DNA from: a virus
Taxonomy: Duplodnaviria > Heunggongvirae > Uroviricota > Caudoviricetes
IMG/VR virus record: IMGVR_UViG_2718218402_000006
Length of the DNA stretch: 46,690 nt
Reading direction: 5' to 3' (one strand)
Positions 36,001 through 39,000 of the stretch are shown here, one piece after another (the first letter of the stretch is position 1; each line of letters starts with the position of its first letter). Made by a program: the position numbers.

Positions 36001-39000
36001 TATATATTATATCCAGATAAACTTATCCGACTTTACCTCGTGCATAGCTTGTTATTTAAAGTTAACAAAATAAGGAAAATTATACGCATATTGAAGAGTA
36101 TAAACCTTACATGTTGATTACATTTTTGTAATCAACATCCTGTTTGGAATAGCCAGCCTTTAATGGATAACTATTTCTGACAATGCAATGAGTATAATCA
36201 AGTCCATCTTCCACTGAGAATTAGAGGCGGCATGCTTTTTCCGGCTCTTGCCGGATATCCGTAATTGTCCATAATCTGCAGATTTATACCTTCTGCATGA
36301 CCTGTCAGCGAAAATTTGTCCGGTGTTTCTACGGGAATGACATCAAAAGTTACACGCACTCGCGTTACCGTGTAGACCTACTTTCCTGCACTTGCAAGAT
36401 CACAGTGGTGTAACCGTAACAGGAATTTATTCTCTGGACCGGCAGTAAATCCCTGAGTGGCGTGGTTCCCATATCAATTTCCCGCCAGGCAGCCTCCATT
36501 GCCAGCGTACAGGCTGGAGCCATGACCTGCCCTTTAAATCTGGCCCGACCATCCCACCGGACGTGTTCTTCTCCCCTGAACTTAGGTACAGTCATCTCCA
36601 GTGGCACAAAAGTGTCAGCGCCATGATTTTTGACCGTTATCGCGCTACGGATATTTTGTTGACTGGTGAAAATCACCCCGCAGAATCAGGCTTATTCCCT
36701 TAACCCGGGATTTCATCCTGACCGCCGCCTCACTACGACCAATCAGACTGCCGATGCATTTTACCTTCATTGTTAGTATCATGATTTCAGGCCTGCACCA
36801 TCCGCTCATTGCCCGGACTTCCGACAAATCCCGGCAACCATATCCCGGTGCTTGTTCAACTCCCGCAGCGCGGCGCAGACTCGCTCCCACTTCTGGACAT
36901 GATTCTTCGCCCTACGCAGTTCGCGATTTGCCATATGCAGCGATGGCAAAATCAAATCATCTTCTCGCGTTGCAGTAAACGATGGCAGCGACTGCACAAT
37001 GTCCGCCACAGTTTCTGTTTTAATATCTTCCTGTGTTGCATCTTTCTGTACCGGTAACGCAACACCGGCTGGCTGAGGAAAGGCTTTACCATCGGTTTCC
37101 GTTACCGATACGGCTTTCGGCTTTGCTGGTAAATTATCGTCCGGCATGCAGTAACGGAATTTACCGTTCTGATTTACGCGAATCAGACGCCCTTTGCTGA
37201 TTGCCATTGCCAGCGTTGAAGCTACTTTGCGTGATGTGGTACCGAACAACGTAGCCAGTTCATCCGCCGTTTGTGGTCCGCGTTGTTCAATCGTCGCGGT
37301 TAAATCGCACTCTGAGATTTTCGCTACTGTTGCTGTGGTGGTTTCTTCCGGCAGCTCTGCCTGCGCTGGCTGTTCCTGCTGAACGTTGTTATCAGCCACA
37401 CGCCAGGTGTACGCGCTTTTATCAACAAAACCAGCCTTTTTCAGTTCCCATAGTTCGTTAAGCACTTCTTCACGACTGACATCAAGTCGCGCCGCAAGTT
37501 CTATGGATGTGGCTTTTCCCATTGCTTTCAGTGCGTCAAAAACAGTCTCCATTAAATTTTTTTCCTGGTAAAAATTACTTTGTGATTCCTGGCTGGACGA
37601 CATTCGGGCGCCAGCTTTCCCAGTTAAAACTCACCCAGCGTCCGCCGTTCATGGTCATGCGATCCATAATCCGCTCACCGAGCAATGTTTTCATGGCCTC
37701 ATAGTTCAGGTTTGTCAGCATTCCCACGCTACGCATCGACGCTGTCCGTCGATCAATAATCTGGTGCAGTACTACCTGCTCGTTTTTCGTCTCGCGCTGA
37801 ATGCCAATTTCATCAAGAACCAGCAGATCCACTTCGCACAGTTCCCGCAATAATTTTTCGCCTGACTGCCCGTCGTCATAGCTGGCATGCAGGGCACTCA
37901 TAACATCAGCCACGGTAACCACAATCACTGCCTGACCGTCTTTCAGCAGGCGATTTCCGATAGCTGCCGCTAAATGGTTCTTCCCGGTACCAGGTTTTCC
38001 GCTGAACGCAAAATTTGTACACCCGGTCATCAGTTCATCGGCGATGGATTTCGCCTGGCTTAACGCGTATCGCTGGCCGTCGTTCTGCACCTGGTAATTT
38101 GCAAACGAGCATTTACGATGCAACGGCTGGATGCCTGAGCGATTCAGAATTTTTTCCACCCGCAACTGACGATTCAGGCGGTTGATCTCCTCGCTACGTT
38201 TTCGCCCTTCTGCAAGCTGCCACTCTCGCCACTCGTCCACTGTCCGGCACGGCGCGGTTACATGCTGCGGAGTCAGCTTACGGATACGTTCAAGAACACC
38301 GCCTGTCGCAATATTTTTCACAGTTCGTTACCCCCTAAACCCCGGCGGAATTTCGGTGTCTGGTTCAGAAATATGATTCACACAACGCTGTACAGGTGAA
38401 CGCCCCAGGCGGATGACCAGTTCGTCCCATTTTTCGCGGAGCTTTGACGGGCTCATGATGTTTTTTACCCAGAATGGATCCCGCTGTACCCGCCCAAACA
38501 TTTCGCAAATTTGTCTGTGAGTTCTGCCATCCAGCATCCGCATTGTGCGCACATCATTGGCCCATGCGGTCCAGTTTGGTTCTTTCGGTCGCGAGATCTC
38601 GCCATCATCGCTGGCAGCCTGCTCGTAAAGACTCACAATTCGTCCCCAGATCCACTGTGCGCACGCCAAATCTTCCTGACTTCCCCACTGGCGTTTTTTC
38701 GCACTGAACACAACCGCGTCAGGGTGTCGGGTTAAAAAATCCTGTTCAGCCGTCTGCGGGTCCGGTTGCGAAGCTTCCGGACGAGAAGTGTTTTTATTCT
38801 CTGTAGTAATCTCTGTTGTATTCTCTGTAAGATCATCAGGCCATTTTGACCCGATGACATTGGGTCGTTTTGAACCAATGGAGCGTGCCATTTTGACCTC
38901 TTCCATCGTGTCATTTTGACCTGATGGAGCGGTGCATTTTGACCTGATGGATTCGCTCACTTTGCCACCATCTAAAAGCTCACTCTCGTAATTAATCGTG

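Follow-up and report, generated by a model that had tools for sequence, protein, structure and literature searches.

We analysed a group of direct repeats located within the replication initiator gene of a virus of the class Caudoviricetes, using the 46,690-nucleotide (nt) DNA of IMG/VR record IMGVR_UViG_2718218402_000006 (hereafter, the window). The gene is 100% identical to the E. coli AMSHJX01 chromosome, where it belongs to a lambdoid prophage in ydfJ. Its product matched PHROG 391, "replication initiation O-like", with an E-value of 1.1e-96. From the N-terminus, the protein consists of a putative winged-helix domain (N-domain), a linker that bears the putative origin, a lambda-O-like C-terminal domain (C-domain) and a DnaT-like tail. 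The N-domain extends to about amino acid (aa) 110, and similarity to lambda O begins at about aa 147. A DnaC-like helicase loader gene begins 6 nt downstream of the initiator gene. The coordinates of these features are summarized in Table 1.

Iterons and 12-nt repeats within the initiator gene

Five 23-nt units (iterons) were located at window positions 38834-38949, and a sixth, degenerate unit at 38950-38972. The initial annotation had described five to six copies at a spacing of about 23 bp, and this was borne out: in the direction of the gene, the five units start 23, 23, 23 and 24 nt apart, and the repeat finder TRF returned a period of 23 for the block. The iterons span positions 321-460 of the 966-nt gene, the first starting at 344 nt, or at 321 nt when the degenerate copy is included.

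The iteron core is GGTCAAAATG on the minus (coding) strand. On the plus strand, CATTTTGACC was found exactly at 38842, 38889, 38912 and 38935, the variant CGTTTTGAAC at 38866 and the degenerate CACTTTGCCA at 38958. The exact 10-mer thus occurs four times inside 103 nt, with 0 further copies on either strand of the 46.7-kb window (about 0.09 expected by calculation). We propose the iteron consensus CATCRGGTCAAAATGnnCyGATG. The consensus of 66 copies, [C/G]A[T/A][C/G]RGGTCAAAATG..., ending in T[C/G], is an imperfect palindrome with symmetric arms around the A-tract CAAAATG. The degenerate unit is better preserved in relatives, where it reads GGTCAAAGTG.

On the sense strand, the iterons are followed by a 5-nt spacer, three 12-nt repeats with the motif CAGAGAnTAC, a 12-nt spacer and a palindrome (38782-38760). 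The 12-mers read TATTCTCTGTAG / TAATCTCTGTTG / TATTCTCTGTAA on the plus strand. The AT-rich ctctgt tract reported to lie after the iterons is therefore present; however, it follows them in the gene direction only, because the gene is on the minus strand, and it is a moderately AT-rich tract composed of a specific motif. Its AT content was 70% and its GC content, measured separately, 35%; 67% of its sense-strand bases are purines. No other 40-mer of the stretch examined, 37.5-40.2 kb, is as unstable (z about 3), and the tract falls in the bottom 1.3% of stability over the whole window. Another stretch of low stability, ranking almost equally, was found beyond the opposite end of the iteron block, at 38989-39029. 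The single-stranded tract was predicted to be free of structure, and the palindrome was predicted to form a hairpin.

An inverted repeat of the form GTC...GAC occupies the place of this palindrome in all enteric relatives that have the N- or C-domain of the window, and also in lambda. In relatives with another C-domain, the palindrome is GTCCGGTTGC-NNN-GCAACCAGAC, with near-constant arms and a variable centre.

A consensus search for DnaA boxes and IHF sites gave none within the origin region and one DnaA-box-like site at 38314, where the loader gene starts. Scanning the region for promoters and terminators gave nothing above chance. A known RNA element was excluded, as Rfam had no match in 38300-39400 at permissive thresholds.

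Table 1 Features in and around the initiator gene (window positions).
Feature	Position	Strand	Description
Initiator gene, "O-like"	38328..39293	-	Open reading frame (ORF), 321 aa, 966 nt; PHROG 391
N-domain coding DNA	38964..39293	-	aa 1-110; presumed iteron-binding winged helix
Iteron 0, degenerate	38950..38972	-	Sense GATGGTGGCAAAGTGAGCGAATC; in register with iteron 1, which starts 23 nt further on in the gene direction
Iteron 1	38927..38949	-	Sense CATCAGGTCAAAATGCACCGCTC
Iteron 2	38904..38926	-	Sense CATCAGGTCAAAATGACACGATG
Iteron 3	38881..38903	-	Sense GAAGAGGTCAAAATGGCACGCTC
Iteron 4	38858..38880	-	Sense CATTGGTTCAAAACGACCCAATG
Iteron 5	38834..38856	-	Sense CATCGGGTCAAAATGGCCTGATG; best palindrome of the set; inverted-repeat relation detected
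Three 12-nt repeats	38795..38830	-	Sense ACAGAGAATACA / ACAGAGATTACT / ACAGAGAATAAA; motif CAGAGAnTAC; presumed DNA unwinding element
Imperfect palindrome	38760..38782	.	GTCCGGTTGCGAAGCTTCCGGAC; 23 nt, GTCCGG-11-CCGGAC; in the place of the inverted repeat right of the lambda AT-rich region
C-terminal tail coding DNA	38328..38393	-	VQRCVNHISEPDTEIPPGFRG; resembles the C-terminus of host DnaT
DnaC-like helicase loader gene	37575..38321	-	NF009043, E 1.5e-151; DnaC equivalog model, E 6e-92
pR-like promoter	40075..40104	-	TTGACA-18-TAATAT, from a consensus scan only; upstream of the cro-like ydaS

Conservation of the repeats as DNA and exchange of modules

The iteron core is read in frames 1, 0, 2, 1 and 1, giving SKC, GQN, VKM, SKR and SKW. 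Because 23 is not a multiple of 3, the 23-nt repeat is not a period of the protein. We resampled the gene synonymously (n = 2000), keeping the protein fixed and redrawing the codons from the prophage's own usage. Four exact 10-mers were reached in 0 of the 2000 resamplings, the maximum being 2 copies, and four copies with at most one mismatch in 6 of them. Codon positions were then compared among 11 enteric homologues that align without gaps. Invariant third positions amounted to 58% in the iteron block versus 9% in the N-domain. First and second positions of the block were invariant at 61% and 65%; the usual periodicity is gone, and the pattern tracks the 23-mer instead. The iteron repeats are constrained as DNA rather than as protein, and with the core in three frames and beyond the reach of resampling, the objection that the copies would lose significance once the repeats of the encoded protein are accounted for did not hold.

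Homologues of the N-domain with 45-58% identity were found in Bacillus, Anoxybacillus, Staphylococcus phage 96, Bacillus phage TP21-L and Pseudomonas phage AF, and in Taibaiella, Hydrogenimonas and Nitrospirae genome bins. At most of the homologue loci inspected, the DNA just past the N-domain carries iterons spaced at 21-24 nt and then 2-5 copies of CAGAGAnTAC. The same layout accompanies the homologous N-domains of Bacillus, Staphylococcus, Pseudomonas, Bacteroidota and Campylobacterota. The iterons are palindromes around CAAAATG with lineage-specific arms (GGTCA/TGACC, CTGTTCA/TGAACAG, GTGCCA/TGGCAC and GGTGCA/TGCACC); the Bacillus-type iteron, for example, is CTGTTCAAAATGAACAG.

CAGAGAnTAC is about 70-fold enriched in the zone past the N-domain, with a density of 5.8 versus 0.08 per kb. 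In T-E-x-T peptides, which were chosen at the protein level, Glu is encoded by GAG at 47:1 against a background of 185:316 (Fisher p 4e-18) and the first Thr by ACA at 47:1 against 99:251 (p 5e-22); these p-values ignore shared ancestry and represent upper bounds on the evidence. The motif copies are spaced at 10, 11, 14, 22 or 95 nt instead of 12 nt in six lineages, and the same motif is thus read in different frames. In TP21-L, for instance, the copies are translated as PETT-QRI-PETT.

A scan of IMG/VR for two motif copies 12 nt apart yielded at least 120 loci. Among the matches listed, 118 of 120 have the motif in the same frame and 109 of 120 have it at 400-640 nt from the ORF start (median ORF length, 308 aa). 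The N-domains of these listed matches are of at least three kinds by BLAST, and their upstream iterons are diverse (CTGCAAACAGG, CGCCAATCAAG, GTTGGCTAG, AGATTCAGGGAAAGTC and others), with 23-nt spacing predominant. As judged by these sequence comparisons, the "AT-rich tract" is a specific nucleotide motif, CAGAGAnTAC, kept across phyla beside hypervariable iterons. The literature searched, whose coverage was incomplete, contained no account of this tract; searches with the motif strings matched unrelated primers only.

The breakpoints of BLAST alignments with many relatives fall at 38794/38795, a sharp mosaic junction that separates the N-domain, iterons and 12-mers from the lambda-O-like C-domain. 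Klebsiella phages (e.g. ST147-VIM1phi7.2) and E. coli 5CRE51 share with the window only the N-domain, the GGTCAAAATG iterons and the 12-mers, and their C-domain is unrelated. Conversely, vB_EcoM-720R4 and the CFT073-type and 2013C-3181-type prophages share only the C-domain and have a different N-domain and different repeats, e.g. GACCCGTCAAAATCTGA or GTTGACCCGTCAA. Because the N-domain and the iterons co-vary among relatives, they are inherited as a unit, as expected of a specificity determinant. We propose that the outer iteron arms and the N-domain set the replicon specificity; the co-variation of these modules lends backing to the earlier suggestion that the iterons define it.

The 12-mer tract also occurs apart from this particular N-domain. 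E. coli A34 has a 37-nt stretch 97% identical to the tract, in an initiator whose N-domain has no BLASTP-detectable similarity to that of the window (E 0.3). Twelve viral proteins match both N-domains, and the two groups are therefore probably distantly related. The helicase partners encoded downstream differ as well: the window has a DnaC-like loader and mEp460 has no partner; E. coli A34 encodes both a loader and a DnaB-like helicase, and Pseudomonas phage AF a primase-helicase. Since partners and hosts vary, the tract goes with the origin cassette and not with the helicase system or the host.

In mEp460 and in Klebsiella phages that have an initiator of this family, the place of an adjoining loader gene is taken by LygF, YfdN-like or Dam methylase genes. 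Such loader-less phages presumably use host DnaC.

Comparison with oriλ and the proposed origin

We observed the anatomy described above, selection at the DNA level, co-variation of modules and homologies of the encoded protein, and we consider it highly probable that the region is the replication origin of the prophage, of the lambda type and situated inside the linker of its own initiator gene. By its published definition, a lambdoid origin comprises iterons and an AT-rich tract midway in O; the O protein binds AT-rich single-stranded DNA (ssDNA), and oriλ opens at the AT-rich tract (PMC7466680).

We compared the window with the real lambda sequence and its annotated iterons. In both, the origin region sits midway in the initiator gene, flanked by the coding DNA of the N- and C-domains, and the first iteron starts at nearly the same place in the gene (344 nt here versus 348 nt in lambda O). 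The iterons are spaced at 23-24 nt here versus 20, 24 and 23 nt in lambda. Origins of the oriλ class, including those of Stx phages with six iterons, have 4-6 direct repeats that are imperfect palindromes around an A-tract (lambda TCCCTCAAAACGAGGGA versus CATCGGGTCAAAATGGCCTGATG here), and the palindrome centre TCAAAAYG is found in the iterons of both the window and lambda. The tract after the iterons is 70% AT and 67% purine here versus 77% AT and 70% purine in lambda. It is followed by an inverted repeat, GTCCGG-11-CCGGAC here versus GTCAGAGAATTC-4-GAATCCTCTGAC in lambda. At the protein level, aa 147-294 aligned with aa 135-270 of lambda O at 34% identity (E 1.5e-27). The position within the gene, the palindromic iterons, the meltable tract, the inverted repeat and the PHROG 391 match thus support the view, already expressed in the initial annotation, that a lambda-style origin is embedded in an O-like initiator gene.

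Several features differ from lambda. The iterons here are 23 nt long and have other arms; the partner is a DnaC-type AAA+ loader, whereas in lambda it is P; the "AT-rich" tract consists of three copies of a specific 12-mer; and the initiator ends in a DnaT-like tail, which was not seen in the lambda O sequence.

For the binding, the opening site, the contact with ssDNA and the helicase hand-off, we infer the following course. After induction, transcription from the pR-like promoter would express ydaS, ydaT, the initiator and the DnaC-like loader, and the transcript would cross the origin. Dimers of the winged-helix N-domain would bind the five or six palindromic 23-nt iterons and form a nucleoprotein complex resembling the O-some. 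Strain from this complex would open the adjoining, least stable, purine-rich tract of three 12-nt repeats, and the initiator may touch the CAGAGAnTAC repeats as ssDNA too. The lambda-O-like C-domain and the DnaT-like tail would then bring the phage DnaC-like loader with host DnaB to the opened DNA.

A contact of this kind is known from plasmids: in RK2 and F, the winged-helix Rep protein binds one strand of repeated 13-mers, and each repeat is required (PMC4081077). The 13-mers of RK2 oriV and of oriC resemble the 12-mers in that they are short, specific repeats of about one helical turn adjoining iterons or DnaA boxes; they differ in sequence, and the repeats of the window lie within a coding region. 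By analogy, one strand of CAGAGAnTAC might be read as ssDNA by a conserved surface of the winged-helix initiator superfamily, which would make the motif a phage counterpart of DnaA-trios and RK2 13-mers. We put forward this generalization tentatively and regard it as rather doubtful. If true, it would describe a very widespread class of origins with sequence-directed opening, kept in phages of Proteobacteria, Firmicutes, Bacteroidota and Campylobacterota. In either case, the CAGAGAnTAC repeats offer a testable handle on DNA opening by winged-helix initiators other than DnaA; because the motif lies in a coding region, its DNA and protein roles are separable by synonymous recoding.

The following points weigh against assigning the region as an origin. 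The N-domain has no detectable relation in sequence to that of lambda O, with no match to PF04492 (Phage_rep_O), and BLASTP aligned only the C-terminal halves of the two proteins. The sixth iteron is degenerate in the window, and the tract is only 70% AT. The low stability of 38989-39029 makes that stretch a second candidate for the site of opening. The conservation counts include related sequences, and the p-values overstate independence. A search of the literature on lambdoid iterons, oriJ and replisome organizers gave no paper on this replicon type, a weak negative, as the coverage lacked the classic papers on lambdoid origins. Finally, the prophage may be defective, in which case its origin could be intact yet unused.

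The best surviving alternative, which we nevertheless consider improbable, is that the 23-mers bind the initiator mainly for regulation, for instance in autoregulation, as a roadblock to transcription or to titrate the initiator, and that opening and loading occur elsewhere, e.g. at 38989-39029 or outside the gene. Plasmid iterons do serve control besides initiation, and the nearly equal rank of 38989-39029 in stability agrees with this alternative. However, that stretch encodes the conserved N-domain part LNKSKRDMTNFYTINY, and its composition is thus explained by the protein, whereas synonymous sites are frozen in the 12-mer tract and not in 38989-39029. Moreover, the tract travels with iterons across phyla and N-domain families, and the order of iterons, tract and palindrome mirrors that of oriλ, where opening occurs at the AT-rich tract (PMC7466680).

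A second alternative concerns the tract alone and is compatible with an origin function of the iterons: CAGAGAnTAC could owe its conservation to a role as a recombination "linker" between modules, through which phages would exchange cassettes of N-domain and iterons by homologous recombination, rather than to one as an unwinding element. The mosaic breakpoints of many relatives, which lie exactly at the tract edge, and the near-identical tract of E. coli A34 next to a dissimilar N-domain would be expected under this explanation. Nevertheless, the motif is common to phages that cannot swap DNA often, those of Proteobacteria, Firmicutes, Bacteroidota and Campylobacterota; the spacing varies at 10-14 nt while the 10-mer itself is constant; the motif is always oriented in one way and placed directly past the last iteron; and 36 nt would probably be short for efficient homologous exchange. 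We judge this explanation unlikely, somewhat more so than a mainly regulatory role of the iterons.

It is most improbable that the repeats are a by-product of a repetitive, disordered linker between two domains, without a DNA function: although the region does encode a low-complexity linker (SKC..GQN..SKR..SKW, then TENTTEITTENK), in which the 12-mer tract forms an in-frame 4-aa repeat whose DNA repetition, in this single sequence, is weakly above the level imposed by the protein (reached in 40/2000 and 137/2000 resamplings), the iteron core occupies all three frames and reached four exact copies in 0/2000 resamplings, third-position invariance is 58% in the iteron block versus 9% in the N-domain, the T-E-x-T codons are skewed (Glu GAG 47:1, Thr ACA 47:1), and CAGAGAnTAC is translated as PETT, QRI or RDY depending on the lineage.

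Other replication systems, prophage context and distribution

The gene order around the origin is that of the Rac prophage (racR-ydaS-ydaT-ydaU-ydaV; origin oriJ): the window has a repressor annotated as RacR, genes of the YdaS and YdaT families and a YdaV-type loader, and direct repeats followed by an A-rich tract are also found in the middle of ydaU. Apart from its final 19 residues, however, the initiator itself has no relation to YdaU (DUF1376) and gave no DUF1376 match, and the ydaU repeats are of the type TGTTCAAAC, not GGTCAAAATG. The comparison with lambda and Rac suggested in the initial annotation therefore gave a layout that matches lambda and an iteron sequence that matches neither.

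In ydaU of E. coli K-12, direct and inverted repeats (ATGTTCAAAC, GTGTTCAAAC, GTGTTTGAACA) lie in the middle of the gene and are followed by the A-rich tract ACAGATAAAGATC... From its sequence, this repeat region is a plausible location of oriJ.

The oriL of SPP1 lies inside gene 38, which encodes the replisome organizer G38P, and combines direct repeats with an AT-rich unwinding element after them (PMC6316719). The SPP1 sequence shows this layout, and like the window it has the origin inside the initiator gene. Its repeats are instead of the GAAACGACA / AAAAAGACAC type, and the CAGAGAnTAC tract is absent. We considered G38P as a relative of the window initiator and rejected it, as the two have no sequence similarity. 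The N-domain could be compared with the RepA_N plasmid initiator of Gram-positive bacteria (structure 4pta) and with the N-terminal winged helix of DnaD/DnaB at an identity of only 11-16%. The initiator differs from RepA_N proteins in its lambda-O-like C-domain, and no Pfam match to RepA_N was found.

Pfam searches with the whole initiator and with each half retrieved no family, even at E-values up to 10 for the isolated N-domain, and NCBIfam gave a weak match to the DnaT tail and nothing else. RefSeq lists the protein as "hypothetical protein" both for the source genome and in the majority of records sampled. The 92% identical gene of mEp460, HannyBb and PhiR42_1 is named "replication protein O" or "primosomal protein I" in the phage records.

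The loader is 92% identical to Rac YdaV over 248 aa (BLASTP). The last 21 residues of the initiator match the extreme C-terminus of DnaT (PDB 2ru8, 6aep and 9zbt; E 0.012-0.04), and the otherwise unrelated Rac YdaU ends in the same tail. As a DnaC paralogue follows the initiator, the arrangement echoes the dnaT-dnaC operon of the host. These similarities suggest that the DnaT-like tail may be a contact for the DnaC-type loader; the mode by which DnaT recruits DnaB/DnaC is stated to be unknown (PMC13377028). Tails resembling ..PAGFRG/S also end initiators with other C-domains.

The prophage has integrase, exonuclease, dicB, RacR-type repressor, YdaS (Cro-like) and YdaT-family genes, after which come the initiator and the DnaC paralogue. 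Beyond the loader lie genes for DUF1627, RusA, Q, lysis, head and tail, as well as type III effector cargo. An inverted repeat with 15-bp arms (ACAATGATATTAGGC...GCCTAATATCATTGT, 40069-40104) lies between the ydaS-like gene and that of the RacR-type repressor and overlaps the pR-like promoter there; by its sequence and position it looks like an operator.

Of 5,426 complete E. coli genomes, 1,845 contained this replicon type at a coverage of at least 80%. It is a very common, uncharacterised case of the lambda-type class with the origin inside the initiator gene, and as a kind it is ordinary. Its description is useful for prophage annotation, for predicting incompatibility or exclusion of co-resident lambdoid prophages, and for origin-based phage-resistance or vector tools.

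Records labelled as plasmids were considered as a sign of plasmid-like maintenance, which we rejected, as they are phage-sized circles or mislabelled chromosomes. NZ_CP081704.1, NZ_CP081794.1 and NZ_CP095244.1, from E. coli and Klebsiella, are circular, 42-44 kb in size and carry phage genes besides the replicon; they probably represent phage genomes in circular form that were caught in assemblies. Bins labelled Veillonella parvula, Bacillota and Collinsella contain a sequence 96% identical to the E. coli prophage gene, most likely through binning contamination. The prophage also carries nleC, nleG and a gene for a HECT-type E3 ligase, all encoding type III effectors, four tRNA genes (Gly, Thr, Lys and Ile) and the adhesin gene paa (window 2667-6925, 30265-30574 and 35188-35946).

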